DNA of 64,000 bases from an uncultured Mariniphaga sp. (GCA_964575025.1 CAZNPV010000008.1:11727-75726), one strand, 5' to 3'. Positions 6,620 to 23,847 are shown, counted from the first letter of the stretch. Numbers and translations are program-made. The notes: generated by a model not told the origin, from the sequence alone.

Positions 6620-6841
6620 TTGTTCCCTGTATGGTTATTTTTTTAAAAGAACACCCTCAGACAAAGATAATAAGGATGTCGATACCGGACCTGTTATTTT
6701 TCCTGCTTAAGTCCGGTTTTTTTAGTAAAACTTGTTAATTTTAACCTTAGTAACTGAAAGTACGGGTTACATGCAATTTTCACAGAGTTACAATCTGCAT
6801 TTTAAATACTGATAAATTAATAAACAATCCAACCAACAATT

Positions 6842-7780: not shown

Positions 7781-7803
7781 CAACAACCAGATGCCATAAA
7801 CAG

Positions 7804-7836
7804 ACAGGTGTTATTCCAATAGCACCTGTTTTTTTA
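7804..7836. terminator. Bidirectional intrinsic terminator between convergent genes
   Basis: ACAGGTG (7804-7810) and CACCTGT (7823-7829) form the stem, followed by a T7 run. The element lies between the stop at 7780 (+) and the stop at 7837 (-). Confidence 0.6.
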
Positions 7837-8517
7837 TTAATTCAACACTCCGTCATGCAGATAACAGGTTTCATCCATACGGTCTGCCAGATCCTGTGAA
7901 TGAGTTACTACCACCATAGCCACTTTTTCTTCTTCGCTTAATGAAACCAACAGATCGCCAAGATTCTTCGCGTTTTTTTCATCCAGGGCACCTGTTGGTT
8001 CGTCGGCAAGCAACAGTTGGGGTTTATTAATCAGCGCTCTGACCACTGCTGTACGCTGGCATTCCCCTCCGGATAATTCTGCCGGGCGTTGATACCGTTG
8101 ATCCCAGATACCCACCCTCTTAAGCAGGTACTCAGCCCACGATTCATCCATAACCTGTACTTTCTTTTTAAAAGGAAGTACAGGCAACAACACATTTTCC
8201 CAGAGCGTAAGCTGTGGCAGAAGATAATGCATCTGAAAAATAAATCCCAGTTCCCTATTTCTGAATTCTGCCATTTCAACCTGTGACAACCGGGAGAGGT
8301 CTTTTTCCTTAAAGATGATTCTTCCCGAATCTGCACGGTCGAGGGCTCCTGCAACATTAAGCAGGGTTGTTTTTCCGGACCCGCTGGGCCCCAGAACCGC
8401 CATTTTTTTCCCCTCCTTCACTTCCAGCGACAGTTCTTTTAGTACAGGCCGGAAACCGGGGCTGTTGGGATCTCCATATCCCTTTGATACATTGTCCAGC
8501 AATAATAAACTAGCCAT
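7837..8517 (-). CDS. ABC transporter ATP-binding protein (MacB/LolD type)
   Basis: Walker A GPSGSGKTT, signature LSGGECQR and Walker B LLLADEPTGALD are all present. Confidence 0.9.
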   Translation of the reverse strand: MASLLLLDNVSKGYGDPNSPGFRPVLKELSLEVKEGKKMAVLGPSGSGKTTLLNVAGALDRADSGRIIFKEKDLSRLSQVEMAEFRNRELGFIFQMHYLLPQLTLWENVLLPVLPFKKKVQVMDESWAEYLLKRVGIWDQRYQRPAELSGGECQRTAVVRALINKPQLLLADEPTGALDEKNAKNLGDLLVSLSEEEKVAMVVVTHSQDLADRMDETCYLHDGVLN

Positions 8518-8531
8518 CTATGATTTATATA

Positions 8532-9830
8532 TTATTGTTTTTCGCTTCCATGCAGTGATTCGTACAGCTCAATCATTTTCAGGGTTTGTATGTGGATATC
8601 AAAATGTTTTCTGACCCCACTGACCGCCTTCTCACTGAGCGATTGAATTCTTTCCGGTTTGGTAAACAAATCCTCCAGGGTCTCTGCAAGTGCTTTGGGG
8701 GTATTCTCTTCATAAATCACTCCGCCTTCCGAAGTTTCCACAATTTCCGGGAAAGCCCCCAATGCAGGCTGTACTACAGGCACCCCTGAAGCCATAGCTT
8801 CCAGAAGGTACATTCCGAAAGCTTCTCCATTCCGTACCGGTACTGAGAGCAAAGAGACCTTTTTAAAAAATTCGTCTCGTCCCTGATCTTCAAACTTCTT
8901 ATGAAAGTCAACCTGACTATCCAGATTGTTCTTTTTTAAACGCTTTTTTATTTCTTTGATATAGCGGGTATCATCCCCTGTAGAACCACCGGTAACCACC
9001 AGTTTTACATCCCCGAACCCGGGTTTCTTTTTTAACTCAATAAATGCATCGGTAAGAATATCCAACCCGTTTTCATGGTTCATTCGTGAGAGATATCCAA
9101 TATTACGTGGCTTTTCTGAAGAATTAATGCAGGTATAATCTGTATGGCTGATGCCAAGGTGTATGATATGCACTTTTTCTGGGGGTAAGTTCATCTTTTT
9201 CTTCATCACATCCGCAAAATAGGTACTGACCGATATAAAGGCATCCACATTTTCAGCTTTTTGGTGCATCAGTTTCCAGATATGTTTTCTGAAACCCGGT
9301 TCCATGGCGTCAACCCATACATCTTCATCCTGGAGCGAACATACCACCGGGACGTTAAGCTTTTTTTTAATCTGACGGGCCAGACCCAGCAACAAAGCAT
9401 TGGATATATGGATGATATCCGGCTGAAAGTGGTCGGCTATCCAGTGAACCATTTCGTCCAGTTCTTCCCGTTGCTTTCCTTCTTCTCCCATCAGCATGGA
9501 TTCAGTCATATCTTCCAGTCCCCTGGCGTTGGTTGATCCAGCCATCGATGAAGCAAACTTCAGAAGAGGCTTTGAATTTAAAACACGCTCCACCCATCTC
9601 GGTGCTTTTCTCAATACAGGAAAACGTTGTTTCAGGTACAGACTCACAGCACCATAAAATACCGGAATGTCGGTAAGGTCATGTTCATCCGCAAAAAGGG
9701 GCAGATACATGGGTATCTTAATTACCTGGTGTCCTTCCTTTCTGAAAGCTTCGAAATATTTGCTGTCACGAAGACAATTCCCGCAATAAAAGGAACCACC
9801 TGATCCGGGTATTATCTGAATGATATTCAT
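8532..9830 (-). CDS. Glycosyltransferase, family 4 (GT-B fold)
   Basis: 432 aa. The C-terminal half carries the GT4-type EAFGMYLLEAMASGVPVV motif. The N-terminus has an unusual GSFYCGNC motif. Confidence 0.75.
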   Translation of the reverse strand: MNIIQIIPGSGGSFYCGNCLRDSKYFEAFRKEGHQVIKIPMYLPLFADEHDLTDIPVFYGAVSLYLKQRFPVLRKAPRWVERVLNSKPLLKFASSMAGSTNARGLEDMTESMLMGEEGKQREELDEMVHWIADHFQPDIIHISNALLLGLARQIKKKLNVPVVCSLQDEDVWVDAMEPGFRKHIWKLMHQKAENVDAFISVSTYFADVMKKKMNLPPEKVHIIHLGISHTDYTCINSSEKPRNIGYLSRMNHENGLDILTDAFIELKKKPGFGDVKLVVTGGSTGDDTRYIKEIKKRLKKNNLDSQVDFHKKFEDQGRDEFFKKVSLLSVPVRNGEAFGMYLLEAMASGVPVVQPALGAFPEIVETSEGGVIYEENTPKALAETLEDLFTKPERIQSLSEKAVSGVRKHFDIHIQTLKMIELYESLHGSEKQ

Positions 9831-9856
9831 GATTTGCTTTCTTTCCCTGTTCGTTC

Positions 9857-10963
9857 TTATTCACCAAAACAGTACACAAAACCATCGAAAGCACCGGTCA
9901 CAATTTTTCCGGAAAATACGGCCGGATTACTCAATACGGAACTTCCCAGTTCATAGGTCCAGACAACTTCCCCGTTTTCCAGGTTTGAAATAATCAGGTC
10001 ACCGCGGGTATTTGCCGTAAGCACTTTATCTCCTGAAATTACTGAGGATGCATCTATTTTTCTTCCGGTATTGTGCTTCCAGCGCAATTCTCCGGAATCC
10101 TTGTCAAAACAGTAAATGTATTTATCGTTGTTGCCGATCACAACCTTATCATCTTTTAATGCCGGCGACGCAATAAACGGAAGAAGCGTTTCTTCATCCA
10201 GCCATGTCCATAACACCTTTTTTGTTTGCAGATCAACTTTTGAAAATTTACCATCGTAATCGCCCAGGTAAACATGATTCCCATCTACGGCCACCGAACT
10301 GGCCACATACGTAGCCACATCAATTTTTGAAATCAGTCTGCCGTCAGAAATATTCACGATATGGAGAAAACCGTCACAGCCACCAAATATTGCTTTGCCA
10401 TCAAAACAGGCTGCGGCACCGTTCACAAAATTATCGGTTTCATATTTCCAGCGGACCTCGCCGGTTTCTGCATCCACACAATGAAGGTAAAAATCGTAGC
10501 TCCCCACCACAATGCTTGTTTGTCCGTCACTGGTCCAATAATTGGGAGAACCACTGATCTGATTTTCACACCTATACTCCCATTTCACCTTTCCCGAATG
10601 AAGATCGATAGCCAGGAGCTGACCATCCAGGTTCCCTATATACACGGTACTCTCCAGGATTAAAGCAGGAGCTTCAATGGAATTTTCGGTTTCATGCTCC
10701 CATATTTTTTTACCCGATGTATCCAGACAGTAAACCATTCCGTTTGTTGATCCAATCACTATTTTCCCGTTTGCGGCAACCGGAGCTGATTTAATCATAT
10801 CTCCGGTATCAAATGTCCAGAGCAGCTTTGGGTCCCGGGGTAATTCAGAGGCTGCCACGCCTGTGAGTTGCTTATTCCCCCGGAATAGTGGCCAGGCGGT
10901 CTGTTCCTGGGGATAAACCATATACCCAAAGAAAATCAATACAATAAGTGTTAAATACTTCAC
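9857..10963 (-). CDS. Secreted PQQ-like/BamB-like beta-propeller repeat protein (paralog 1)
   Basis: 368 aa. Signal peptide, then WPLFRG, then repeated ...G.l.a.D..tGk..W... blades. Confidence 0.8.
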   Translation of the reverse strand: MKYLTLIVLIFFGYMVYPQEQTAWPLFRGNKQLTGVAASELPRDPKLLWTFDTGDMIKSAPVAANGKIVIGSTNGMVYCLDTSGKKIWEHETENSIEAPALILESTVYIGNLDGQLLAIDLHSGKVKWEYRCENQISGSPNYWTSDGQTSIVVGSYDFYLHCVDAETGEVRWKYETDNFVNGAAACFDGKAIFGGCDGFLHIVNISDGRLISKIDVATYVASSVAVDGNHVYLGDYDGKFSKVDLQTKKVLWTWLDEETLLPFIASPALKDDKVVIGNNDKYIYCFDKDSGELRWKHNTGRKIDASSVISGDKVLTANTRGDLIISNLENGEVVWTYELGSSVLSNPAVFSGKIVTGAFDGFVYCFGE

Positions 10964-11005
10964 GATAATTCGTAATTATAGGTTAATCTTTGTATCCAGG
11001 CCTCT

Positions 11006-12568
11006 TCAGCTTGTTTTTTTCATTGACAGAGCTCCCGTCGGACAGCTTTCCGCCACCTTCCTGGCAGTAACCACCAGGCTGTCTCTCAATTCCTCATTAA
11101 AAGGTGTACCTATCTCCACATCAAATCCCCTGCCAATGAAAGTAAATCCGAATTTCTCCCTGTATTTGGCCGTCAGCCGCACACAGATTCCGCATTTAAT
11201 GCATTTCCCCGGTTCATACACAACAAGGTCGTGGTTGAAAAGTTTAGAGATTTTTCGTCTTTCTCCGGTTGAAAATCTGCGCTGGCTGGCTTTGTATTCT
11301 TCAGCAAGGTTCCGAAGTTTACACGAATGTATCTCCCGGCAATCACAATGAAGGCATCGTTTGGCTTCTTTCCGGGATATTTCCGGTTCAAATCCCCGGT
11401 TTTCTGTTTCCGGAGGGGTCCATCGTTTACCGGGAATTGATTCTTTCAGGTATTCAGAAAATTCTTCCGGGGTCAGCTTTCCGAACCTGGAATTAAACAG
11501 ACGGGGCTCTCCTTTCACTTCTTCCCTGTTTATATACTGATCCACTGAAAAAGCCACCTCTTTGCCCTGTCCTGCCGAGCGCACTGCCAAACGCGACGGG
11601 CGCAGTACATTGCCAATTGCAAACACTCCTTCTTCGGAAGTCTCATAGGTGTTTTTATCTGCTTCAATTCCTTTGGCTGTTAACCGGAAGCCCCATTTTT
11701 TCTGGGAATCGGAAATATTTCCGGAGGCTATAATTACCGCATGGTTTTCTTTTCTCAGTTCCCGGAACATTTCTGCATCCACCTCTTTGCCAGTTTCCAA
11801 TGCAACCCCGGTGTCCGCGATCTGTTGTATTTCCCTGTCGAGGATTTCTTTCGGAAGTTTTTCATTATCGATTTTGTACCGCAGCATTCCTCCCGCCTGT
11901 TCTTCTTTTTCATAAACGGTACATGCATACCCCCTCAAGCGGAGATAGAAGGAAGCTGCCAGACCTGCCGGTCCTGAGCCTATAATGGCCACTTTTTTCG
12001 TATTGGAAGGGGGAACTTCAAGCGATTGAAAAACCTTTTCCGCGGCTATATCACCAACAAATCTTTTCAGGAGACATATTGATACCGCTTCATCCACCGA
12101 TTTCCGATGGCAGGCTCCTTCACAGGGTGCCGGACATATACGTCCCAAAACGGAGGGAAGGGCAATGTCCCGGAGAACCACCCGCAGGGATTCTTCAAAT
12201 TTACCTTCCAGAATCAGGCGGTTCATTTCCGGAATATTCATGTGTGCCGGGCAGGCAATCTGACAGGGTGCTTCGCAATCGCCGACATGCTCACTGAGCA
12301 GCAATTCCAGAGCTATTCTCCTCCCTTCCAGGACCTCTTCATCTTCGGTAACAATCTCCATGCCCTCCTGTACCATTCTCGAACAGGAAGGAATAAGCTT
12401 TCCGGTAGCAACATTTTTCACCAGGCAAACCATACAGGACGTAAAATGTTCCAGTTCTTCATGCCAGCACAACGAAGGAATCCGTTCTCCTGCCAGTTCA
12501 GCTGCTTTCATTACAGAAGTTCCCTCCGGAACCTGTATTTCTCTGTTGTTTATTTTAATGTTGATCAT
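11006..12568 (-). CDS. FeS/FAD oxidoreductase: N-terminal 2Fe-2S ferredoxin domain, GltD-like FAD domain lacking the NADPH-binding Rossmann domain, C-terminal 4Fe-4S region
   Basis: 520 aa. NuoG/HydA-like N-terminus, GltD-type Cys pattern (CPAPCEGAC), GXGXXG (IIGSGPAG), and C-terminal CIKCGICV...CPTGA. The start abuts the stop of the upstream gene (TAA-ATG at 12568/12569). Confidence 0.7.
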   Translation of the reverse strand: MINIKINNREIQVPEGTSVMKAAELAGERIPSLCWHEELEHFTSCMVCLVKNVATGKLIPSCSRMVQEGMEIVTEDEEVLEGRRIALELLLSEHVGDCEAPCQIACPAHMNIPEMNRLILEGKFEESLRVVLRDIALPSVLGRICPAPCEGACHRKSVDEAVSICLLKRFVGDIAAEKVFQSLEVPPSNTKKVAIIGSGPAGLAASFYLRLRGYACTVYEKEEQAGGMLRYKIDNEKLPKEILDREIQQIADTGVALETGKEVDAEMFRELRKENHAVIIASGNISDSQKKWGFRLTAKGIEADKNTYETSEEGVFAIGNVLRPSRLAVRSAGQGKEVAFSVDQYINREEVKGEPRLFNSRFGKLTPEEFSEYLKESIPGKRWTPPETENRGFEPEISRKEAKRCLHCDCREIHSCKLRNLAEEYKASQRRFSTGERRKISKLFNHDLVVYEPGKCIKCGICVRLTAKYREKFGFTFIGRGFDVEIGTPFNEELRDSLVVTARKVAESCPTGALSMKKTS

Positions 12569-14911
12569 TTATTTTACATCAATTGCATCTTCCGGGCAAA
12601 CCTGCCGGCATGCATCACATTTGATACACAATTCGGTATCGATCTCATGTTTTTCATGGGGCTTGAAAGCAATGGCATCGGTTGGGCATTTCTGAGCACA
12701 CAAGGTACATCCGATGCAGTTATCATTTACTGAATAGGTAATTAATCCGGTGCATTTTCCGGTTGGGCACACGCCATTGATATGGGCTTCATACTCCTCC
12801 CTGAAATACGTTAAGGTTGTTAACACCGGATTGGGAGCAGATCCTCCCAGGGCACACAGACTTCCCTTTTTTGTCCACCGGGCCAGTTCCTCCAATTTTT
12901 CCAGGTCACCTTCCTTCGCTTTCCCGGTACACAGATTATCCATAATATCCAGCATTTTTCTGGTTCCCACCCTGCAGAAGGTACATTTTCCACAGGATTC
13001 ATTTTGTGTAAATGAAAGAAAAAACCGGGCTATATCGACCATACAATCGGTATCATCCATCACGACCAATCCTCCGGAGCCCATCATGGCTCCAAGCCGG
13101 GTTAGTGATTCATAATCGATGGGTGTATCTCCCAACGATGCCGGAATACATCCTCCGGAGGGTCCGCCAATCTGGACCGCTTTGAACTTTCTGCCATTGG
13201 CTATTCCTCCTCCGATCTCTTCGACTACCTGATTAATCGTGGTGCCCATAGGTACTTCAATGAGGCCTCCCCGGGCCACTTTCCCTGCGAGGGCAAAAAC
13301 CTTGGTCCCCTTGCTTCGCTCTGTACCTATACAGTTAAACCGTTCCGGTCCGTTACGAATTATATAGGAAATCTGTGCCAGCGTTTCGGTATTGTTAACC
13401 AGTGTGGAATGCCCCCACAAGCCTTTATCAGACGGATACGGAGGCCGGATATGCGGAAAACCGCGGTTTCCCTGGATCGATTCAATCAGGGCTGATTCCT
13501 CGCCACAAACGAAAGCCCCGGCTCCCTCATAAATGGAAATATCAAAATCAAAACCCGACCCCATAATATCTTTCCCCAGGTATCCATGTTCACGGCACAT
13601 TCTCAGGGCTTCACGGATACGATGAACGGCCAGGGGATATTCTGCCCTGATATAAAAATATCCATCTCCGGCTCCTGTAGCATATGCAGCGATAATAGCT
13701 CCTTCAATAACCCGGTAAGGATAAGACTCCAGAAGCATCCTGTCCATAAATGCGCCGGGATCCCCCTCATCCCCGTTACAAATCAGGTACTTTTGATCAT
13801 CCTTCTTTTGGGCTACAAGCTCCCATTTCATTCCCGTAGGAAAACCGGCTCCACCCCGTCCCCGGATACCACTTTCCTTAACAATCCTGATAATTTCCTC
13901 CGATCCCATCTTAATGGCCATTTCCAGGCCTCTGAAACCAGCTTTCGATATGTATTCTTCGATATCCAGGGGATTTATCACTCCCCTGAACTCTGTGGCT
14001 ATAGAGATCTGTTTCCCTAAAAATGAGGCAACCTGTTTTTCCCGTATATTCAGTTCGTATCGTTTAATTCCATCCCATTTGCTGTCGGATTGAATGTTTT
14101 CTATGGAGCTTAAAAACCGGTTCTTAATTCGCGTCAGAAAACCAGAAGCTTTAAAGTGGTTCGTTATAATTTCGCCGACATCCTTTGGGTTAACCCTGGA
14201 ATACAGAATTGTTTCCTTGCTATCATAAGGGACTATTTCCACCAGGGGCACCTGGTGGCACATCCCCACACATCCTACGTGTTTGAGTTTTACGTTCAGT
14301 TTGTTTCTGTTCACTGCCTCTTCCACAGCCTCACGAATCTCTCCGCTTCCGCTGGCTACACAACAGGATCCCAACCCGATGCGTATTTCTCCCTCTATCA
14401 CTGTTCCATCAGCACGACGGGCTTTCTGATCCTCTTTTTTATCTTTCCGGGACTCAAAATCCCGTATGACCTGAACCACCTGTCCGGACTCTACATGTCC
14501 ATAAGTTATCCTGTCAACCTGTACTACAGGAGCCAGCGTACAACACCCCAGGCAACTTACTTTTTCCAGGGTATACTCCCTTTTTTCGTCTGTATCCTCT
14601 CCTTCTTTCAACTTCAGCTCCCTGTGAAAAGCATCATACACCTGCTCTGCTCCTTTCACATGGCAAGCGGTTCCTACACATACCTTTATCCGGTGATGCC
14701 CGGTTGGAGATATCCGGAATTGAGAATAAAAACTGGCCACTCCGATAATATCGGCAGCAGTAATCCTGGTCGTCTCACTAACCCTTCTTAAGGCTTCCTG
14801 AGGAAGGTAGTTATATTCCGCCTGAATTGCCTGCAATATAGGAATCAGGTTCTTCTTTTCAGAACCCGTTTTTTGAATGATTGTATCTACAACAGTAAAA
14901 TCCTTCTCCAT
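12569..14911 (-). CDS. NuoE-NuoF fusion flavoprotein (HydB/HndC-like NADH-binding FMN/FeS diaphorase subunit)
   Basis: 780 aa. NuoE-like 2Fe-2S Cys pattern, a second 2Fe-2S-like domain, NuoF motifs GRGGAGFPTG and CNGDEGDPGAFMDR, ESCGKCTFCR, and a C-terminal 2x[4Fe-4S] CxxCxxCxxxCP. Confidence 0.85.
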   Translation of the reverse strand: MEKDFTVVDTIIQKTGSEKKNLIPILQAIQAEYNYLPQEALRRVSETTRITAADIIGVASFYSQFRISPTGHHRIKVCVGTACHVKGAEQVYDAFHRELKLKEGEDTDEKREYTLEKVSCLGCCTLAPVVQVDRITYGHVESGQVVQVIRDFESRKDKKEDQKARRADGTVIEGEIRIGLGSCCVASGSGEIREAVEEAVNRNKLNVKLKHVGCVGMCHQVPLVEIVPYDSKETILYSRVNPKDVGEIITNHFKASGFLTRIKNRFLSSIENIQSDSKWDGIKRYELNIREKQVASFLGKQISIATEFRGVINPLDIEEYISKAGFRGLEMAIKMGSEEIIRIVKESGIRGRGGAGFPTGMKWELVAQKKDDQKYLICNGDEGDPGAFMDRMLLESYPYRVIEGAIIAAYATGAGDGYFYIRAEYPLAVHRIREALRMCREHGYLGKDIMGSGFDFDISIYEGAGAFVCGEESALIESIQGNRGFPHIRPPYPSDKGLWGHSTLVNNTETLAQISYIIRNGPERFNCIGTERSKGTKVFALAGKVARGGLIEVPMGTTINQVVEEIGGGIANGRKFKAVQIGGPSGGCIPASLGDTPIDYESLTRLGAMMGSGGLVVMDDTDCMVDIARFFLSFTQNESCGKCTFCRVGTRKMLDIMDNLCTGKAKEGDLEKLEELARWTKKGSLCALGGSAPNPVLTTLTYFREEYEAHINGVCPTGKCTGLITYSVNDNCIGCTLCAQKCPTDAIAFKPHEKHEIDTELCIKCDACRQVCPEDAIDVK

Positions 14912-14956
14912 ATCTTTCCCAACAAAAATCCCTGATTGGTCTTTACTCCTTATCTC

Positions 14957-16858
14957 TTATTTCCCAAAACAATACAGATTCCCGATGCCCCGGATAAAAA
15001 TTCTGCCATCCGAAAATGCAGGGGATGCATACCCTTCTTCCCCCAGTTCCGGTTGACCCAATACCTTTGCTTCCCTGCTTACTTCAAGAATATGCATCAC
15101 TCCCTGGGTATCGAGGGCATAGATCTTATTATCTGCTACCACCGGGGAAGCGTAAAATACTTTTCCGAAGTCTTCCTCCCAAAGCAATTCTCCTGTTTTT
15201 GCATCATAACACACCAACATCCCATAGGTTGTGGCCACTATCAGCAGCCCGTTTGCACATACCGGGCTGGCCACTTCGGGAAGGTAAAAATCATCTTCCC
15301 AGACAATGGCTGCGTTCACCGGATCAATCGCTGCAAGGCGGGCATATTCATTGGCAGCAAAAACCAACCCTTCACACACGGTTACTGAAGGGCCAACCTC
15401 GCCCATCAGGCACTCCACAGCCCATTGTTCTTCACCTGTTTCAGTATCATAACCTGCCACAATCGGAGCGCCGGTAAGTATCACCTGTTTTTTCCCGTTG
15501 ATATCAGCCAGTACGGGGCTTGCCCAGGAGATACCGGCATCCCGGGGGGTTTCCCAAACCGTTTCGCCGTTTGCTGTATTCAGGGCCATCACTTTTGCCC
15601 CGCTGTTGGTGTCGAACTGAACAAACACTTTCCCGTTCCAGGTAACCAGGGATGAGGAGTGTCCATAATGGTTGTCAGGCATTCCAAGGTTCCTCGCCCA
15701 GATCCGGTTTCCGTTCACATCAAAACAGATGATATCACCGGTCGCGAAAATAGCAAAAACGTATTTCCCGTCTGTTGTAACGGTCGGAGCAGCCAACCCT
15801 GTATCATCCGATACCTTTGGTATTTGGGCTGGTGATCCGGGAATATTATCTGCCACTCCGGACCATAAAAACTCCCCGGTATTCTTATCCAAACAGTATA
15901 CTACCCGGGCCTCCTCATCACCCCCTGAAAGGAAAACTTTATCTTCCCAGACAACGGGCGAATTGAATCCTGGTTTCGGTATCGCGGTCTTCCAGATAAG
16001 ATTTGTTCCGTCAGCCCCGTTCCATTCTACAGGTACGTCAGAAAGGGTACTGACTCCATTGCTCCAGGGACCCCGGAAACTGTTGTAATTACCATTCACC
16101 TTTGCAGGAGTTAAGATGCCTGCTACACCCTCTGAATCAGCTTGTTCGGATTCATCCAGCCCTTCATCCGTTCCTTCCTGCAGAGCTTCTTCCTGGCTGG
16201 AACCTGGGTCCGGCGTACTAACTGTTTCTTCTCCGGTTACCCTTTCCGGTTCTGTTTCCCCGGTATCCGGACCGGAAACCTCTTCTGCCACCTCTCGTGA
16301 GGCACTTATATCCACGACTTCAATCCCTTCCTCAGCAGGTTGTTCATCCGGTGGTATGTTCGTCTCACCTATGGAATATTTATCCAGTTGGTTTACCGTA
16401 GCCAAGGAAACAAACAATGCTGAAACCAACACGGCAACCCCGGTAAAAAGAATCCATTTCCGGGAAAGAATCCGGCTCGCTATTTCATTTTCCTGTGCCG
16501 TATCCGGTTCCTCAATTTTTGCTTTCAGAGAATAATAATACCGTAAAGCAACCGCACAAACAACTGCACCGAAAAGCAAAAGGTATGCTCCGGTTTTAAC
16601 CTGCCACCTGCTGTTGAAGTAGGCTTTTCGCGCAAGAAGATCAAAACTCCGTATTTCCTCCTTTAATTCTTCGTTATTGGGTTCATCCTGCAGCCTTTCC
16701 ACCAATGCTTCAATGGTTTTGCTCTCCAACGTTTCATTCTGTGCAAACTGATAATAGTTCAGCAGAAGAAGCAACGCCACCAATGCACAAAAGATTCCGG
16801 AGATGAGAATCACCTTTTTTGAAAGCTGAAGTTTATCGTTCATTGATATTTCTTTCAC
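14957..16858 (-). CDS. Membrane-anchored PQQ-like beta-propeller protein with acidic linker (paralog 2)
   Basis: 633 aa. Three N-terminal hydrophobic helices, then a roughly 90-aa Glu/Asp/Thr/Pro-rich linker, then SFRGPW and PQQ-like blades. Confidence 0.75.
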   Translation of the reverse strand: MKEISMNDKLQLSKKVILISGIFCALVALLLLLNYYQFAQNETLESKTIEALVERLQDEPNNEELKEEIRSFDLLARKAYFNSRWQVKTGAYLLLFGAVVCAVALRYYYSLKAKIEEPDTAQENEIASRILSRKWILFTGVAVLVSALFVSLATVNQLDKYSIGETNIPPDEQPAEEGIEVVDISASREVAEEVSGPDTGETEPERVTGEETVSTPDPGSSQEEALQEGTDEGLDESEQADSEGVAGILTPAKVNGNYNSFRGPWSNGVSTLSDVPVEWNGADGTNLIWKTAIPKPGFNSPVVWEDKVFLSGGDEEARVVYCLDKNTGEFLWSGVADNIPGSPAQIPKVSDDTGLAAPTVTTDGKYVFAIFATGDIICFDVNGNRIWARNLGMPDNHYGHSSSLVTWNGKVFVQFDTNSGAKVMALNTANGETVWETPRDAGISWASPVLADINGKKQVILTGAPIVAGYDTETGEEQWAVECLMGEVGPSVTVCEGLVFAANEYARLAAIDPVNAAIVWEDDFYLPEVASPVCANGLLIVATTYGMLVCYDAKTGELLWEEDFGKVFYASPVVADNKIYALDTQGVMHILEVSREAKVLGQPELGEEGYASPAFSDGRIFIRGIGNLYCFGK

Positions 16859-16975
16859 TTGTATAGAACTAATTTAAAACATTATGCAATTAAAAATAAG
16901 TAGCAGTGTCTTAACAGACTTCATCGGGCCCGTGGTACCTCGTTTCATCCATAGATTGTTATGATCTTTCATCCT

Positions 16976-18241
16976 TTACTTTTTATCGACAGGGCAATAA
17001 TCCATACAGCGCCCGCAACTGAAGCATTCACCCCGGTTAGGGGTATAATCTTCCTTGCGACGATAAACCACCTGGTTCAACAGGGTTAATCCAATCACCA
17101 GACCGATAAATCCTCCCAGAATCCAGCTTCCCACATAAAATTCCTCTCTCTTTAATCTGGCTTCTTCCACCAGGGTATCCATTGTTTTTCCGGATTCCAG
17201 AAAGGTCTGAATATCTATATTTTCAGGATCATCTTTTAACTCAGGATGTTCAATCAGCAATTCAGCCAGGTATACATCGGGATGAGCCCTTGACAGCCAT
17301 ACATGGGCTTCCGAACCGATAAATCCACCGGCAGCTATCCATAACGGGAGCAAAGCAGCATACAGCATAAAATTTCTGACTCCCGCACGGGATGAGGTTG
17401 TTGCTTTTTCATCGGTAGGAACATCAATCGCATCAAAAGGACACGAGGTAGTACATAACTTGCAACGGATGCATCGGGAGGGAGTTATGGATAAATGCCA
17501 TTTAGAAAATCTTGAGAACAAGTTTAACAGTACGGCATAAGGACAGATAAACCGGCAATAGGGACGTGCAACAAACATTCCCATCAATAAGAAACTTACT
17601 CCCAGGACAATCATATGAAACGGGGCATCCATTCTGAAGATACCGATAAACGGATCATAACGGCAAATAATAAATTCGGTTCCGGTAGCTGCATAAAGAA
17701 CAGCAAGCCCCAGATAGATAGCAGGAAAGATCCCCAGGATCTTCCGCAGCCAGCGTGGCAGCGAAATGGGTTTAAGGATAACGAGGTCCTGAATGGCCCC
17801 CAACGGACAGGCACCTGCACAAAATGTTCTTCCAAAGAATAAAGTGAAAATCAGAGGCATCAGGAAAAACAACAAAGCAGTGACGGAAACAGCATAGGTT
17901 GAATCAAAAAATGAAAGGGTGACATTCTGCACCGCCCCTACCGAACAGATACAGCCGTTACGGTAAAAACCAAAATAGAGCATGGTAAAAACCGACAACC
18001 ATAAAATTCCCTGCCGGGAACGTTTCTTCAGGGCCATATAAGAAACCATGGAAAGAACGACCAGCAAGACAAGTACATCTAAATACTCCATCGCCTGAGC
18101 GCGTGGCTCCGGTGTTACCGGATCGGGTTGGACATAGCCGCTTTCGAATTCCGGTTTGGGGAATCGTTGCTGCTGCCCCGACACAGATACACAAAACAGC
18201 AACAGGATAAAAGCCACGAACAGGTGTATTTTTGGTATCAA
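16976..18241 (-). CDS. NapH/NosR/MauN-like integral-membrane polyferredoxin
   Basis: 421 aa. Two CX3CP motifs at helix ends (CAGACPLG, CRFICPYA), 4Fe-4S motifs CIRCKLCTTSCP and CFSCGRCMDYCP, and multiple TM helices. Confidence 0.75.
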   Translation of the reverse strand: MIPKIHLFVAFILLLFCVSVSGQQQRFPKPEFESGYVQPDPVTPEPRAQAMEYLDVLVLLVVLSMVSYMALKKRSRQGILWLSVFTMLYFGFYRNGCICSVGAVQNVTLSFFDSTYAVSVTALLFFLMPLIFTLFFGRTFCAGACPLGAIQDLVILKPISLPRWLRKILGIFPAIYLGLAVLYAATGTEFIICRYDPFIGIFRMDAPFHMIVLGVSFLLMGMFVARPYCRFICPYAVLLNLFSRFSKWHLSITPSRCIRCKLCTTSCPFDAIDVPTDEKATTSSRAGVRNFMLYAALLPLWIAAGGFIGSEAHVWLSRAHPDVYLAELLIEHPELKDDPENIDIQTFLESGKTMDTLVEEARLKREEFYVGSWILGGFIGLVIGLTLLNQVVYRRKEDYTPNRGECFSCGRCMDYCPVDKK

Positions 18242-18274
18242 AGTTTTAAGTTTTATGCTTGTTTCATTAAATGT

Positions 18275-18841
18275 CTATGCTATATTGGTCCAGCTTCCCT
18301 TCACCTTATAAGCATTCTCAGCTTTGACGCGTTTAATCGCATCAGAAGGACAAACCCGTGCAATGGAACACTCATTGCAATTGAGGCATATATGGTGCAT
18401 GATCTGCAGGTGGAGAGATCCGTTTCCGAAAGCCGTACATCCTTCCACACATTTGCCGCATCCGATACATAAATCTTCGTGAATAATATACTCAAAATAG
18501 GGTTCCTCAATAAACTTTCGTTCGATCGCAGCAGCCGGGCAAAGCTGATTTTCGGCTGCTGTTGAAAGTTCATTGGCATCGGGCTTAAAGTATCCTCCGC
18601 ACAGATCACAATACCCGCATAAATCAAAAGCATGAATGCATTTCACTGCCGAAGGATTCAGCATACACTCGGTGGCACAACGCCCGCACTGTGTACACTC
18701 AAAAGGATCGATCTGCCATACCCATTCGTCGGTTGTTGAGCGACCAAGGGCCAACCCTGCCAGTCCACCGACAGCCATTCCCATGACCATGCGCGTCCCG
18801 CTCTGAATAAATTCTCTCCTTGTTTTAGCTTTTTCTTCCAT
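18275..18841 (-). CDS. Tat-exported 4Fe-4S polyferredoxin (NapG/MauM-like)
   Basis: Start placed at MEEKAKTRREFIQSG... (twin-arginine signal). There are several CxxCxxC...CP clusters. The longer ORF running to 18919 is probably an N-terminal over-extension. Confidence 0.75.
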   Translation of the reverse strand: MEEKAKTRREFIQSGTRMVMGMAVGGLAGLALGRSTTDEWVWQIDPFECTQCGRCATECMLNPSAVKCIHAFDLCGYCDLCGGYFKPDANELSTAAENQLCPAAAIERKFIEEPYFEYIIHEDLCIGCGKCVEGCTAFGNGSLHLQIMHHICLNCNECSIARVCPSDAIKRVKAENAYKVKGSWTNIA

Positions 18842-19031
18842 CTTCTCTCGCTCTTTTTGCCTTTTGAAGGGTACACGTTGAAAAGCGCTCACATCCGGAG
18901 CAGAGTGAATCCCCTTCACATTCTGAAACCCCGGTAATGCGCCTGTTTAGGGTTAAGTAACCGGTAAAAACACCAATACTGCATAGTATTAGCCACCTTC
19001 CACTGTTTCTTATAAATTCCTTTCGTTTCAT
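18825..19031 (-). CDS. Small (68 aa) anchored protein with a CX5CX2CX5C motif
   Basis: N-terminus MKRKEFIRNSGRW plus a hydrophobic helix resembles a degenerate Tat signal or anchor. Tail reads CEGDSLCSGCERFSTC. The start shares an ATGA overlap with the upstream gene's stop, and 17 nt overlap the downstream start. Coding status is unproven. Confidence 0.45.
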   Translation of the reverse strand: MKRKEFIRNSGRWLILCSIGVFTGYLTLNRRITGVSECEGDSLCSGCERFSTCTLQKAKRAREDGRKS

Positions 19032-20017
19032 TCTATGGGTTTAAACAAACGGATCATCTTTCGGTCAAAATCCAGGGCATAAATATTTCCTTTCTCATCA
19101 GCCGTTACCTCAGGAGCCTGCCCGTCTTCCTTAAACTTATCAGGAGGAGCCACAACACATTTAAATTCTCCGGATGGTTTATATATTTTTATACGTACCA
19201 GTCCTTTTTCGCTGGTAACAAAGGAACCATCGGGAAGGAAGGTAAAATGCGCGGGATTACAGCATCCACCGAAAGCTTCAATACCCACAATTTTTTTTTG
19301 CTGCCAGTACTCCCGTAATTTACCCTCAGGGGTATAATGCTCAAGGGCATGCAAACCGGTATTCGCCACCCATAAATCCCCGTATTTATTAAAGGCCAGA
19401 TCAAAATACCTGCTCGGAATGATAAATCCGTACAGGGCTTCATCTTCATGTTTTCCGTCAAACTCGCTGATCTTTTTTCCATCCAATGTAAACCGGCATA
19501 TTCTTCTTCTTCCGGCATCTGCAACAAAAAGTTCATCCTCCCATATTCCCAGCGATGTGATTACCGATTTCTCACCCAGCGTATCCCATTTGCTGATCCG
19601 TTCTCCGTTTTTGTTGTAGGAAGCAATATAATTTATAAATGCGATAAATATCCGGGTTGAATCCAGGGTTATGCATGTGGGGGTATCACCCAAGGATTGT
19701 TCAAAAACTAAAGAACCATTCTCTGTGATTACCTGTAAATACTGGTCTCCCAACACATACAAATTCCCTTTTTCATAGGCGATTCCATAGGGTTCAGAAA
19801 AGTTCAGCCGGATGTTTTTGGTTTCTTTGTATTGAATCAGTGAAGGATCCACCTGTTTATACTCATCGATATTGTAGTCAAAGGGATTTACAGGCAGCTT
19901 TTCCGGTCGGATTGAGATAAAATCAACCACCACCACAACCACTATGATTACAGCCAGGGTTATTAGAAAAAGTATGATTCCTTTATTCTTCATAATTATA
20001 ACCGCATATCGATACAA
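19028..20017 (-). CDS. N-terminally anchored NHL-repeat-like six-bladed beta-propeller protein
   Basis: 329 aa. TM helix (ILFLITLAVIIVVVVVV), then NHL-like repeats (YGIAYEKGNLYVLGD, LFVADAGRRRICRF, GDLWVANTG, GNIYALD). Contains a vicinal Cys motif GGCCNP. Alternative start at 19993. Confidence 0.65.
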   Translation of the reverse strand: MYRYAVIIMKNKGIILFLITLAVIIVVVVVVDFISIRPEKLPVNPFDYNIDEYKQVDPSLIQYKETKNIRLNFSEPYGIAYEKGNLYVLGDQYLQVITENGSLVFEQSLGDTPTCITLDSTRIFIAFINYIASYNKNGERISKWDTLGEKSVITSLGIWEDELFVADAGRRRICRFTLDGKKISEFDGKHEDEALYGFIIPSRYFDLAFNKYGDLWVANTGLHALEHYTPEGKLREYWQQKKIVGIEAFGGCCNPAHFTFLPDGSFVTSEKGLVRIKIYKPSGEFKCVVAPPDKFKEDGQAPEVTADEKGNIYALDFDRKMIRLFKPIE

Positions 20018-21423
20018 ACCATTGTTTTTGAATCACGCAACACCAGGTAACCGTCAGCGAGAGCAAACGGAGCCCAGGCATCGTGAGCATCTTCAATCAC
20101 TTTAACCTGTTCGAGTTGAATATATCGCTCTGTACTGGGACGAAGAATTGTAAGTACTGCCTGGTCATCCAGGATAAAGAACTTATTATCCGCAAAAAAA
20201 TAAGGACCTAAGCCAAAACGTTTTTCTTTACCGCTTGACCAGACAATTTTTTTTGTATCGTCAGGATGGACGCATACAAACTGGTTACGTAGCGCTCCTC
20301 CATCCTTGGGAAGAATACCAAACAGGTGATCCTGGTAATACACCGGGGTTTGCTGTTCACAGGCCAGGCCTTCCCTCGGGGCATATTCTGCCAAAACGGT
20401 TGTACGGAATACTCCGTTCTGTTCAGAAAGCTGGACAACCATGGAACCGGCGCCGTATCCTGCTGTCAGAAATATTTTACCGTTGGGCAGGCACACCGGA
20501 GACGGCGCAATCACCGAATGGTTCCATGCTGGTTCTTCCCAAAGAACGGTACCGGCATCCGGCCCCTCTGCGGCTATTCCTACAAGAGCTCCTATGGCGC
20601 TGTAAACATACATCTTTCGTCCCCCAAAGGTAAATGGAACAATCGATGAGTGCGACATTTTCCAGCCTTTCGGATTGGGAGTCTCCCAAAGAGTCTCCCC
20701 TGTTTGGCAATTTACAGCAATCATCAGTGCAGTTCCTCCGGTAGCAAGAATGGCGTTCCCCTCATCAATGAGGGGACACTGCCCTGTATACCACATGGGG
20801 ATCTCCGCATTGTATTTTTTTTCTATATCTATCCCCCAAAGAAAATTGCCTGTTTCCCTTTCCACGCACATGGTATGGCACCGGGGCCCGATGGTCACGA
20901 TATGCGCCTCGGTGACTGCCGGTATGGTTCGGGACATCCCATGATTGCGCTTCACGGCTACACGATACCACCGTCGCCATATCTCTTCGCCACTAACCAG
21001 GGAATGACACCGCAGAACATCTGCACGTAACTGTTCATCATAATCAAGCAGATAGACCAATCCTTTATAGATGGCTGCACCGGAATGACCTTCGCCCAGT
21101 TCAAGAGACCATACAATTTCCGGGCCTTCGGGACCAAATTTTTCCTTTAATCGAACCGGGGATTTTGAAATATTATCCAGATTCTCTCCGCGAAACCGGG
21201 GCCAGGTTTCATTCAGTTCTTGATATTCGTCTGTAAACCGTTCGAAACTCTCCCCTATGGCAATATTCTCCTCAACAGCAACTCCTTCCGTCCGGTTATC
21301 AGCTCCCGGAAGGCTTTTTTCAAAATTTTTCGTGGGATTTGCCCCAAGCCACCAGGCAAATACAACCACTCCCACTGCGGCTATGCCTATAACGACCCAA
21401 TTCTGAATTACCCTCACACCCAT
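19996..21423 (-). CDS. Anchored PQQ-like beta-propeller protein (paralog 3)
   Basis: 475 aa. N-terminal TM helix, then WPRFRG and PQQ-like blades. Preceded by an atypical AAGGAGG box at 21428-21434. Confidence 0.75.
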   Translation of the reverse strand: MGVRVIQNWVVIGIAAVGVVVFAWWLGANPTKNFEKSLPGADNRTEGVAVEENIAIGESFERFTDEYQELNETWPRFRGENLDNISKSPVRLKEKFGPEGPEIVWSLELGEGHSGAAIYKGLVYLLDYDEQLRADVLRCHSLVSGEEIWRRWYRVAVKRNHGMSRTIPAVTEAHIVTIGPRCHTMCVERETGNFLWGIDIEKKYNAEIPMWYTGQCPLIDEGNAILATGGTALMIAVNCQTGETLWETPNPKGWKMSHSSIVPFTFGGRKMYVYSAIGALVGIAAEGPDAGTVLWEEPAWNHSVIAPSPVCLPNGKIFLTAGYGAGSMVVQLSEQNGVFRTTVLAEYAPREGLACEQQTPVYYQDHLFGILPKDGGALRNQFVCVHPDDTKKIVWSSGKEKRFGLGPYFFADNKFFILDDQAVLTILRPSTERYIQLEQVKVIEDAHDAWAPFALADGYLVLRDSKTMVCIDMRL

Positions 21424-21644
21424 GAATCCTCCTTATCCTTAAAACCACCCCTGAGATCGGGGACCAAAGTCCTCTTCAGTATTTACCGGGTACAATATAC
21501 TTTTTTAAATTAAAACTCCGGACCTTCTATGCCTGACAGAAATGAACCCGGCTTTTTTACAGGATATCGTATTCCTTTACAATTCAGATGATAAAAATAA
21601 GGATTTTTATCTTTGCTTTGTTAACACGATCTGAACGGTTCAAT

Positions 21645-22892
21645 TTATAATGCTTTTACATTATACACCATTAATACTTCGCCGTGTCTCAAATACAGTT
21701 TACCCCCGGCTATATACGGATGGGCCCAGTGCGGGCCGCTTCCTTTGGTGATCCTGAACTGGCTAACCACCTCAAACCCATCGGGATCGGGTTTTATGAG
21801 TCCTACATTTCCGCGTTCGTTGTATGCATATAACATTTCGTCAGCCATCACAACCGATCCTTTTGAATCCCAGTCTGCAACAAATTTTATATCTCCGGTA
21901 TCCCAGTTCATGCAGACCCAACGGCCCTGGCTGTTGCTGTACCAGTTTGAACCATAGATGTGCCCGTTATAAAGCACCAACCCACCGTGGTGGTTATCCA
22001 GGGTATGGTCAACATATTTTTCTGAAACCGACAATCCCAGAGAATCCATCTTCAACATCACTGCATCGTAATTATATCCCATGGAAATAAAAATCTCATC
22101 ATCCTTAAAAAGGGGTGTATTGATCCATATTAATCCGTTATCCTGAAACCGCCATTTTTCGGGATCAAAATAGGTATAATGCCAGGCAATGTCCCCTGTT
22201 TCAGGGAAAAGAGCTATAATATCGATACCGGTAACTGCCAGGATATACCTGTAATTATTATAGCGATAAATGGTTGGAGAAACATACCCCCTGGCTCCTC
22301 CCAGCGATTTGCTCTGCCAAACCGGTTCACCTGAAAATTTATTAAAGGCAACAACACTTGTTTTATCCCCTCCGGGGGTACAGATCACCATGTCATCCAC
22401 AATCAATGGCGTTTCGGAATTTCCCCACATGTGGTATTCACATTCATAGTCTTTATCCACCTCCACAGCCCAGATTTCCTTCCCTGTTTCCTTGTTAAAG
22501 CATACGAGTCTTCCGGTACCACTTTGCACATACAAACGGGTTCCCTCAAGGGTCGGTGAACTTCTTGTATCCGGGTAGGACTGCGTCCATGAACGCCCGT
22601 AAGGAACCTGCCATTCAATCTCCCCATCAGAACTTAATTTTGTAAGATAATCGAGGGTGTCGATCATACCGGTAACATAAATGGCATCACCGGTAGCTAT
22701 CGGCGAGGACCATCCCCTGCCGAGATCGTTTGCTTCAAACAAAAGTTCAGGGCCTTCCTCAGGCCACTCCTTTAACAGCCCCGTATCGGGGAAATGGCCG
22801 TCCCGGTCAGGCCCCCGCCACTGAGTAACCTGGGCTGAAAGAGAAATTGAAATGAAAAAGAAAAAACATAAAATAACATTTGCTCGTCTCAT
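21645..22892 (-). CDS. Secreted PQQ-like beta-propeller protein (paralog 4)
   Basis: 415 aa. Signal peptide, then QWRGPDRDG and PQQ-like blades. Confidence 0.75.
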   Translation of the reverse strand: MRRANVILCFFFFISISLSAQVTQWRGPDRDGHFPDTGLLKEWPEEGPELLFEANDLGRGWSSPIATGDAIYVTGMIDTLDYLTKLSSDGEIEWQVPYGRSWTQSYPDTRSSPTLEGTRLYVQSGTGRLVCFNKETGKEIWAVEVDKDYECEYHMWGNSETPLIVDDMVICTPGGDKTSVVAFNKFSGEPVWQSKSLGGARGYVSPTIYRYNNYRYILAVTGIDIIALFPETGDIAWHYTYFDPEKWRFQDNGLIWINTPLFKDDEIFISMGYNYDAVMLKMDSLGLSVSEKYVDHTLDNHHGGLVLYNGHIYGSNWYSNSQGRWVCMNWDTGDIKFVADWDSKGSVVMADEMLYAYNERGNVGLIKPDPDGFEVVSQFRITKGSGPHWAHPYIAGGKLYLRHGEVLMVYNVKAL

Positions 22893-23181: not shown

Positions 23182-23847
23182 ATGACACAAAATCCAGGAA
23201 CTAAAAAACAGGCTCCGGAACCAACCATCCGGAGGCTTCCCGTTTATTTGCATTATCTGACAAAAACAAGGGAAGAAGGGGTTATGAATATTTCTGCACC
23301 TGCGATAGCCAGGGAACTGAACGTTGACTCCACACAGGTTGTTAAAGACCTGGCGTACACCGGAATTAAGGGGCGCCCCAAAATTGGGTATAACATTTAT
23401 GAACTCATCCATTTTATTGAAGAATACCTGGGATTTAATAAAATAAACAAAGCCTTTCTTGTAGGAGCCGGAAACCTGGGCTCTGCACTTATGGCATACC
23501 AGGCAGGGCAAACGCTGGGGTTAAAGATCCTTGCGGCTTTTGATGTATCACCGGATAAAATCGGAACAAAAATAGGGCAGGTAAATATACTGGATATGAG
23601 CAACTTCGTTGAAATGGTGAAACGACTGGGTGTAACGATTGGCATTCTTACCACCCCTGAAGATGTAACTCAGGATGTTGCCGATACAATGATTGAAGCC
23701 GGGATTAAAGCAATATGGAACCTCACGCCTGCCTATTTGAAACTTCCTGATAACATTGTGGTTCAAAATACTTCCATGTATTCGAATGTGGCTGTTCTCT
23801 TGAAAAAACTGGAAAATTCAGAAAATATGCTTACGGTCCCGTTATAA
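23182..23847 (+). CDS. rex: Redox-sensing transcriptional repressor Rex
   Basis: 221 aa. N-terminal winged helix (TIRRLPVYLHYL) and a Rossmann fold with GAGNLGSAL, matching the typical Rex layout. Confidence 0.9.
   Translation: MTQNPGTKKQAPEPTIRRLPVYLHYLTKTREEGVMNISAPAIARELNVDSTQVVKDLAYTGIKGRPKIGYNIYELIHFIEEYLGFNKINKAFLVGAGNLGSALMAYQAGQTLGLKILAAFDVSPDKIGTKIGQVNILDMSNFVEMVKRLGVTIGILTTPEDVTQDVADTMIEAGIKAIWNLTPAYLKLPDNIVVQNTSMYSNVAVLLKKLENSENMLTVPL

Follow-up and report, generated by a model that had tools for sequence, protein, structure and literature searches.

A conserved Bacteroidota gene cluster that joins a NapG/NapH-like pair to a NuoEF-like module and exported propellers

What does a NapG/NapH-like electron-transfer pair serve where no known reductase is encoded with it? 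The question is raised by the minus strand at positions 16976–20017 of a 64,000-nucleotide stretch of DNA from an uncultured Mariniphaga sp. (GCA_964575025.1 CAZNPV010000008.1:11727-75726; this whole stretch is called the window here), where an initial annotation described four open reading frames (ORFs): a 421-amino acid (aa) membrane protein and a 188-aa ferredoxin resembling NapH and NapG, a small Cys-motif protein, and an anchored propeller of the NHL type. We find that these four genes are a real unit but merely the middle of a conserved 13-gene cluster, whose other products, overlooked at first, include a cytoplasmic module of a NuoEF-like and a GltD/NuoG-like protein, four more propellers, a GT4-family glycosyltransferase, and an exporter made of an ATP-binding cassette (ABC) ATPase and an FtsX-type permease. 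Because the cluster offers a complete path from an NADH module to exported propellers, we favor, tentatively and with slightly less than even confidence, the view that it encodes a transmembrane electron chain that is fed by NADH and delivers to a complex of periplasmic propellers.

The electron-transfer pair and the NHL propeller

All four ORFs are present and tightly packed, and only their start codons needed correction. The NHL ORF spans 19028–20017, and an alignment with 15 homologs places its true start at M9, the ATG at 19993; for the ferredoxin ORF (18275–18919), the ortholog alignment makes the ATG at 18841 the most likely true start. The gene immediately upstream, which encodes a further propeller (PQQb), ends 2 nucleotides (nt) before the NHL gene, and 33 nt separate the ferredoxin gene from the NapH-like gene. 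Between them, the small-protein gene overlaps the NHL gene by 4 nt and the ferredoxin gene by 17 nt, so the small Cys-motif protein and the anchored propeller are indeed coupled neighbors of the pair. Domain assignments throughout are Pfam and NCBIfam profile matches, and the pair was placed by its scores against curated profiles and by pairwise comparison with Escherichia coli NapH, NapG, and YccM.

The membrane protein (16976–18241, minus strand, 421 aa) is a membrane polyferredoxin of the NapH/YccM superfamily by its Pfam and NCBIfam matches, conservation, and topology, and the Pfam family Fer4_5 matches it twice. The two CX3CP and several [4Fe-4S] motifs first noticed in it are borne out as FCAGACP (C141/C145), YCRFICP (C229/C233), and two CX2CX2CX3CP motifs at C257–C267 and C406–C416, and the protein contains CIRCKLCTTSCP and CFSCGRCMDYCP. 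We followed conservation in orthologs from GTDB genomes at 56–81% identity, 69 for this protein and 78 for the ferredoxin. Every Cys of the NapH-like protein is 100% conserved in its set, including the further invariant residues C97, C99, and C193. The loss of Cys motifs in orthologs, which the initial annotation had named as grounds for doubt, is seen in none of the 69 and 78 sequences.

Hydropathy and charge counts predict a cleaved signal peptide followed by seven helices, with a periplasmic N-terminal segment of about 30 residues. Helix 2 (residues 78–93) scored under the hydropathy threshold and was placed by inference, because without it the Fe–S motifs would face outward. The K+R counts of the loops in this topology are 4, 5, 10, and 7 inside and 3, 1, 2, and 6 outside. 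Both CX3CP motifs, each placed after a transmembrane helix, and both Fe–S motifs are predicted to lie on the cytoplasmic side, and C97, C99, C193, and a 60-residue acidic loop are predicted to be periplasmic. In the NapH/MauN family, the two [4Fe-4S] motifs are C-terminal neighbors on a protein of four helices. Compared with NapH, the protein here has two extra predicted helices and this 60-residue loop between its Fe–S motifs, as well as the three extra invariant Cys on the predicted periplasmic side. Residues 94–104 (R-N-G-C-I-C-S-V-G-A), also predicted to be periplasmic, resemble a degenerate third CX3CP unit (compare G-x-C-x-x-I-C-P-V-G-A).

The architecture of the pair agrees with the NapG/NapH likeness that had been proposed, since NapG/NapH of E. 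coli and Wolinella succinogenes likewise combine a four-cluster ferredoxin exported by the twin-arginine (Tat) route with a membrane protein that has a pair of CX3CP motifs and, on its cytoplasmic side, a pair of [4Fe-4S] motifs. Membership in the NapH/MauN and NapG/MauM families, however, did not hold. The membrane protein scores 37.8 bits with TIGR02163 (NapH/MauN; cut-off 213.05), 31.5 bits with NF007013 (NapH; cut-off 234), and 26.8 bits with the NosR model (cut-off 1000), and the NapG/MauM family is not among the 14 NCBIfam matches (E ≤ 0.01) of the ferredoxin. Judged by sequence, the pair is of a known kind, that of the NapGH-, NosGH-, and MauMN-type modules, and its resemblance to NapG/NapH is one of architecture and superfamily rather than of membership in those curated families.

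In pairwise comparison, E. coli NapG shows motif-level similarity only to the ferredoxin (28 bits), and E. coli NapH aligns with the membrane protein at 28.5 bits (25% identity over 177 residues). YccM of the COG0348 polyferredoxin group, the sole other polyferredoxin compared, is a stronger match than NapH (65.5 bits, E 3e-16) but is itself uncharacterized; both alignments span the two CX3CP motifs and the first Fe–S motif. CcoG, which belongs to the same group, is a cupric reductase. It is not among the 25 NCBIfam families listed, of 41 matched, for the NapH-like protein, and no Tat ferredoxin or propeller is known as a partner of YccM or CcoG. RdhC/PceC has in common with the NapH-like protein the four-helix module with two CX3CP motifs, which is shared by NapH, NosR, and RdhC and in which the role of CX3CP is unresolved (PMC5928378). 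RdhC has a periplasmic flavin mononucleotide (FMN)-binding domain and no Fe–S motifs (PMC5928378), whereas the NapH-like protein is the opposite, with no match to the Pfam family FMN_bind; the FMN-binding domain with a conserved threonine that marks NosR/NirI and RdhC is absent from it. Unlike RdhC clusters, this one has no RdhA.

The alignment with NapH speaks for a classical NapGH-type arrangement, in which menaquinol is oxidized and electrons pass through the Tat ferredoxin to the propellers, while the NuoEF/GltD-like pair is a separate, soluble Stn/Nfn-like enzyme that happens to be co-transcribed. NapH is regarded as the quinol-oxidizing partner of NapG (PMC5928378), which also favors such an arrangement, but the NapH cut-off is missed widely. 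We consider quinol feeding unlikely, though a live alternative, and return to it with the cytoplasmic module.

The ferredoxin (18275–18841, minus strand, 188 aa) is identified as a Tat-exported polyferredoxin by its profile matches, conservation, and signal. Both features first read from it, the twin-arginine signal TRREFIQ and the polyferredoxin Cys clusters, were recovered: 16 of its 17 Cys make up four ferredoxin-type [4Fe-4S] motifs, all 17 are 100% conserved in the 78 orthologs, and the twin arginine is RR in 71 of these and RK in 7. The small protein (18825–19031, minus strand, 68 aa) has, by the motifs of its orthologs, a Tat-like signal or anchor (M-x-R-[KR]-x-F) and a Cx5Cx2Cx5C motif. 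It begins with M-K-R-K-E-F-I-R-N-S-G-R, followed by a mildly hydrophobic stretch and then CEGDSLCSGCERFSTC. R3, F6, R12, and the Cx5Cx2Cx5C motif are kept in 59 of 60 orthologs, residues 3–4 being RK in 37 and RR in 18, and neither Pfam nor NCBIfam gives a match. The protein was found by phmmer in 59 of 79 loci and by its motif in 11 more. A separate small Cys protein was not found in seven of the related loci (L033, L036, L051, L057, L064, L067, and L077), where the ferredoxin frame abuts or overlaps the NHL stop; in these, the small protein may be absent or fused.

The remaining core gene (19028–19993, minus strand) encodes an NHL-type six-bladed propeller of 321 aa with a single N-terminal helix as its signal anchor, as judged by alignment, model, and Foldseek. 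PF01436 (NHL repeat) matches it at 21.3 bits (cut-off 20), and the model, with a predicted local distance difference test (pLDDT) score of 92.9, is a six-bladed propeller. Foldseek matches this model to the NHL domains of TRIM2, TRIM3, TRIM71, and Brat with target-normalized template modeling (TM) scores of 0.74–0.80, generic folds only, and gives no enzyme-specific match. Sequence searches of the PDB gave generic NHL or ferredoxin-motif matches only, and an NCBIfam scan with 44 members of the NHL family gave nothing beyond weak ScyD/E/F-type NHL similarity.

The motif FGGCCNPAHF, which had been singled out for its vicinal cysteines, is present, and its core is conserved far beyond close relatives. 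An exhaustive profile-free search with the NHL protein returned 3381 clusters at 50% identity with E ≤ 1e-3, of which 668 had E ≤ 1e-30. C-C-N-P is kept in all 150 of the best cluster representatives, down to 30% identity, and F-x-G-C-C-N-P, like G-C-C-x-P, in 148, many of which have a third Cys (F-C-G-C-C-N-P). In a 44-sequence alignment that also reaches 30% identity, the invariant residues are F241, C244, C245, N246, P247, T260, E262, K263, K269, and G275. In the NHL repeat register, G-C-C-N-P replaces the canonical G-Q-F-N-x-P leading into an inner strand. In the model, the vicinal Cys pair would be in the loop 232–248 ahead of inner strand 249–252, and T260, E262, and K263 in the next b–c loop of the same blade. 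In standard propeller topology, such loops are on the face that usually bears binding or active sites, and both loops of the NHL model would therefore be placed on that face.

A 13-gene cluster and its cytoplasmic module

The cluster spans 3359–22892 of the window on the minus strand and is operon-like. Its order is PQQa, PQQb, NHL, small protein, ferredoxin, NapH-like, TM-PQQ, NuoEF, GltD-like, PQQc, GT4, ATPase, and FtsX permease, where PQQa, PQQb, TM-PQQ, and PQQc stand for propellers with repeats of the pyrroloquinoline quinone (PQQ) type. We searched the six-frame ORFs of related loci with the window proteins and counted for each gene only those loci long enough to reveal it. Order and strand are identical in all 82 related GTDB loci searched. 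Beside the NHL gene, PQQb is present in 73/73 loci, the ferredoxin in 76/76, the NapH-like protein in 66/66, TM-PQQ in 54/55, the NuoEF-like protein in 49/50, the GltD-like protein in 46/47, PQQa in 66/67, and PQQc in 38/45. The same neighbors, the NuoEF-like, GltD-like, and GT4 genes among them, also surround NHL relatives at no more than 30–33% identity. The proposed coupling of the pair to the NHL propeller thus stands down to about 30% identity. The NHL protein need not itself be the reductase. Around the closest homologs, the neighbors are always those of this cluster, never a known reductase.

That these genes are neighbors without a shared function, or that their Cys motifs are incidental, is hardly credible. 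Order and strand are kept in about 130 independent Bacteroidota loci, the motifs are invariant, and the coding regions overlap or nearly abut, with spacings that include +2, −4, −17, and 0 nt. In a GTDB scan with one genome per species, an NHL relative was found in at least 580 genomes; the best 80 of these are all Bacteroidota (Prolixibacteraceae, Marinilabiliaceae, Lewinellaceae, Phaeodactylibacter, and unclassified Bacteroidales), and so are all named members of the more distant NHL clusters. Cultured carriers are Draconibacterium orientale DSM 25947, Mariniphaga anaerophila DSM 26910, and Maribellus species.

The domain scans agree with the earlier statement that the window encodes no NapAB, NosZ, methylamine dehydrogenase, or reductive dehalogenase. 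Neither the proteins of the cluster nor the ten largest ORFs elsewhere in the window showed a domain of NapA, NosZ, methylamine dehydrogenase, or reductive dehalogenase; none of these enzymes, and no cytochrome c, was found in the window or the related loci; and NapA/NapB and mau structural genes are absent from the window and from the roughly 130 related loci. In contrast to NapG/NapH systems, the pair here lacks NapA, NapB, and NapC, and its genes always occur with NuoEF-like ones. The CxxCH heme motif is missing from every cluster protein, and cytochrome-based extracellular electron transfer was rejected on that ground.

The genes for MauM/MauN, likewise a NapG/NapH-like pair, are neighbors of those for a propeller subunit and a small subunit rich in Cys. 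Here, however, cleavage would leave the small protein only about 30 residues and 4 Cys, and there is no MauA, MauB, MauG, or maturation gene of the radical-SAM type. A mau-like system was ruled out on the absence of MauA, MauB, and MauG.

Two genes downstream of the NapH-like gene encode what would be the electron input. The first (12569–14911, minus strand) encodes a 780-aa NuoE–NuoF fusion with an NADH/FMN site, matched by PF01257, PF01512, PF10589, Fer4_21, and TIGR01959 (462 bits); it consists of a NuoE-type [2Fe-2S] part, a NuoF FMN/NADH part with its [4Fe-4S] region, and a C-terminal ferredoxin domain with two [4Fe-4S] clusters. The second (11006–12568, minus strand) encodes a 520-aa StnC/NsoC-like hybrid of a [2Fe-2S] part, a GltD-type Fe–S/flavin adenine dinucleotide (FAD) part, and an Nqo3-type ferredoxin part, with the motifs HxxxCxxxCxxxCP (H94–P107) and CxxCxCx5C (C405–C416). 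Both proteins lack signal peptides and hydrophobic segments and are therefore taken to be cytoplasmic.

The hybrid has a single GxGxxG motif (IIGSGPAG), from which about 120 residues lead to GVFAIGN; the same spacing in E. coli GltD is about 280 residues. Its 47 orthologs are similar in length. Motifs of the types HxxxCxxxCxxxCP and CxxCxCxnC have been described for StnC/NsoC, and the GltD-like subunit of Stn/Nso complexes has a second glycine-rich NADP(H)-binding motif (PMC7483475). As read from its sequence, the hybrid lacks this second motif. From the one glycine-rich motif and the short spacing we judge the hybrid to have no NADP(H)-binding domain, so that NADH at the NuoF part would be the sole pyridine-nucleotide site.

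The module thus has much in common with Stn (Sporomusa-type Nfn) and Nso, namely NuoE and NuoF with two C-terminal [4Fe-4S] clusters, as in the HydC/HydB or StnA/StnB arrangement, and a GltD-type Fe–S/FAD domain inside a NuoG-like frame. It differs from them in that NuoE and NuoF are fused, in the size of the hybrid (520 aa against 128 kDa for StnC), in the absence of both the second NADP(H) motif and the molybdopterin-like part, and in being always encoded with membrane and periplasmic partners. The resemblance of the NuoEF/GltD-like pair to the soluble Stn complex (PMC7483475) is a further point for quinol feeding of the NapH-like protein. Against it, the NuoEF-like gene is present in 49 of 50 loci and the GltD-like gene in 46 of 47, both also at 30% identity; the two are interleaved with genes for exported propellers, and the GltD-like protein lacks the very NADPH domain that defines Stn/Nfn function.

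All five propellers of the cluster carry a signal peptide or signal anchor. PQQb (19996–21423, minus strand, 475 aa) is an N-terminally anchored, eight-bladed PQQ_2-type propeller whose model has a pLDDT of 85; structure prediction was made from a shallower alignment than the genome-derived ortholog set. At a median identity of 64%, it is conserved more than the NHL protein. Ahead of the inner strands of most blades it has the conserved residues H113, H161, C216, H258, H302, C311, and C384, in the motifs GEGH113SG, RNH161GMSR, GQC216P, MSH258SS, NH302S..APSPVC311, and HDAWAP. This pattern of His/Cys/Ser motifs looks like a central binding or metal site at the propeller center, and PQQb may be the real catalytic subunit.

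This pattern also speaks for a maturation or maintenance system like that of nos, in which a propeller, most likely PQQb, would hold a metal or metal-sulfide center assembled in the periplasm. The ABC/FtsX system, the small Cys protein, and the NHL protein would then deliver components, and the NapH-like protein and the ferredoxin would keep the center reduced, much as NosR and NosDFY serve NosZ. A vicinal Cys pair and a Cx5Cx2Cx5C motif are both typical ligands of soft metals, and the parts do parallel the nos clusters, where a periplasmic propeller enzyme, a NapH-type membrane Fe–S protein, and an ABC system occur together. Unlike in nos clusters, however, there is no NosZ, cupredoxin, NosD, NosL, or ApbE-like protein, the ABC system is of the MacB/Lol type and not NosFY, and NosZ is outside the best 50 Foldseek matches of PQQb. 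We think such a system distinctly unlikely.

The best Foldseek matches of PQQb are tetrathionate hydrolase and BamB, with a TM score of about 0.55. The first of these is a periplasmic sulfur-compound enzyme, and the match would fit a flow of electrons in reverse, from a low-potential periplasmic donor oxidized by the propeller, inward via the ferredoxin and the NapH-like protein, to NAD+. The chain has solely Fe–S and flavin centers, which are reversible in principle. No oxidizing cofactor, be it a PQQ enzyme signature, heme, or Mo, is evident in the propellers, however, NAD+ reduction requires a donor below −320 mV, and the match to tetrathionate hydrolase is weak, at 14% identity. Reverse flow is, in our judgment, very unlikely. 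The match is in any case too weak for PQQb to be given a function from it.

The other three propellers are PQQa (21645–22892, minus strand), a secreted BamB/PQQ_2-type protein of 415 aa with a signal peptide and a PF13360 score of 73 bits; TM-PQQ (14957–16858, minus strand), in which three N-terminal helices and an acidic linker precede a PQQ_2-type propeller (633 aa); and PQQc (9857–10963, minus strand), a secreted BamB-like propeller of 368 aa. Among PQQ-type profiles, BamB-type PF13360 alone passes its cut-off. With TIGR03075 (quinoprotein dehydrogenase; cut-off 480), PQQa, TM-PQQ, and PQQc score 34–67 bits and PQQb has no match, and true PQQ enzymes were rejected on scores far under the cut-offs. 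Tandem copies of PQQa vary from one to four among the related loci (L001–L082); the window has one.

A proposed route from NADH to the propellers

For the NADH-fed chain that we favor, the analysis shows which domains are present, that the Cys are conserved, that export signals and synteny exist, and that any known reductase or cytochrome is absent; we infer how the proteins touch, which way electrons run, and what the vicinal Cys pair does. The NuoE–NuoF fusion and the StnC/NsoC-like FAD/Fe–S protein would oxidize cytoplasmic NADH, and this flavo-Fe–S module would hand electrons to the seven-helix NapH/YccM-type protein at its two [4Fe-4S] clusters on the cytoplasmic side. The electrons would then cross the membrane through this protein, with its two CX3CP pairs at the inner face and its three invariant Cys at the outer face, and reach the Tat-exported four-cluster ferredoxin, which the Tat-type 4-Cys mini-protein may join. 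The ferredoxin would in turn reduce a membrane-tethered assembly of periplasmic propellers, where the CCNP pair of the NHL protein and the His/Cys-lined center of PQQb could be catalytic or ligand-binding sites. By analogy with NosDFY, the GT4 protein and the MacB/Lol-type exporter might serve the propeller assembly, with a ligand or cofactor being supplied or removed. As to the chemistry, the vicinal Cys would suit thiol/disulfide, sulfur-compound, or soft-metal reactions, and the weak similarity to tetrathionate hydrolase agrees with this; we treat these as leads only. Our guess, held with low confidence, is that a sulfur compound or a soft metal(loid) is reduced at a thiol or metal center.

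Several points weigh against this route. The system is known from computation alone, the NapH-like protein has no known intramembrane cofactor, and how electrons cross the membrane is unresolved even in NapH, NosR, and RdhC (PMC5928378). The donor in characterized NapGH systems is quinol, not a cytoplasmic dehydrogenase, and the NuoEF/GltD-like pair could act on its own as a soluble enzyme, sharing no more than a transcript with the other proteins. Two invariant Cys in the NHL protein are too few to bind a cluster alone, and since its Foldseek matches and those of PQQb are generic only, neither propeller has a catalytic precedent. Some hosts are aerobic (Lewinellaceae and Phaeodactylibacter) and are therefore a poor fit to an anaerobic electron sink. 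Finally, Rex, whose gene is divergent from the cluster in the window, is absent beside the cluster in the 82 related loci, and no canonical Rex operator is present in the 290-nt intergenic region or upstream of the first gene.

As far as we have found, the obligatory linkage to NuoEF-like and StnC-like genes, the lack of any linked known reductase or cytochrome family, the panel of five or more propellers, and the MacB-type ABC system are without precedent. It is possible, if doubtful, that the cluster represents a previously unrecognized class of envelope redox machine, so far seen in Bacteroidota alone: a heme-free, quinone-independent conduit from NADH to the periplasm via a NapH-type protein, with a new cofactor-poor propeller terminal enzyme whose center would be the CCNP pair and/or the His/Cys-lined eight-bladed propeller, assembled or serviced by a MacB-type exporter. 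NapH-type proteins (NapH, NosR, RdhC, MauN, and CcoG) are widespread, and both how they move electrons and what CX3CP does are still open (PMC5928378). Here such a module occurs in a constant gene setting, alongside a clear donor module in the cytoplasm and a defined ferredoxin in the periplasm, which makes it a tractable system for NADH versus quinol feeding of a NapH-type protein, for the role of the periplasmic Cys, and for the reaction of the CCNP propeller. If the chain does export electrons from NADH, Bacteroidota that abound in the sea and in sediments would have an electron sink or reductase so far unrecognized, and several large families now annotated only as 'hypothetical', 'BamB-like', or '4Fe-4S binding protein' would gain a role. 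We found no literature on this cluster, background papers on RdhC/NapH and Stn alone being useful, and public annotations call its products 'hypothetical protein', 'PQQ-like beta-propeller repeat protein', or '4Fe-4S binding protein'.

Distal genes, regulators, and variant loci

The distal part of the cluster encodes the 432-aa GT4-family glycosyltransferase (8532–9830, minus strand), which follows PQQc in related loci, a 226-aa ABC ATPase of the LolD/MacB type (7837–8517, minus strand; TIGR02211, 225 bits), and a 1086-aa duplicated FtsX-type permease (3359–6619, minus strand). A scan of metagenomes anchored on the GT4 gene gave 48 loci, in 38 of which the ABC ATPase follows the GT4 gene and in 29 of which the FtsX permease then follows. 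In the window, the ATPase/FtsX pair, which is contiguous in related loci, is split by a plus-strand gene at 6842–7780 for a TIM-barrel protein with the Tat-like signal METKREFLKKLG. A hairpin with a 13-bp stem at 7802–7831 lies next to this gene, between convergent gene ends. One locus, L060 (JBDLIQ010000003.1), is the sole one to end after the NapH-like gene, with no TM-PQQ, NuoEF, GltD-like, or PQQc gene in the 10 kb downstream, and may be a split cluster.

Upstream of the cluster, the window has a gene for a Rex repressor at 23182–23847 on the plus strand (268 bits, above the cut-off). Regulation by Rex was considered and rejected, as the 10 operator matches with up to three mismatches, against 5.6 expected, include none that is convincing. 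Counts from a promoter and terminator scan were likewise not above those of shuffled controls. The surroundings of the cluster have no recurrent gene otherwise, the nearest to one being a BipA-like GTPase (18 of the 82 loci) and a LytTR two-component pair (13 of the 82). The latter, a histidine kinase and a LytTR response regulator, is encoded among the PQQa copies about 4.5–5.7 kb upstream of the NHL gene in L001, L002, and 11 more loci, the Draconibacterium locus L018 being one of the 13, and is a candidate for a dedicated regulator of the cluster.

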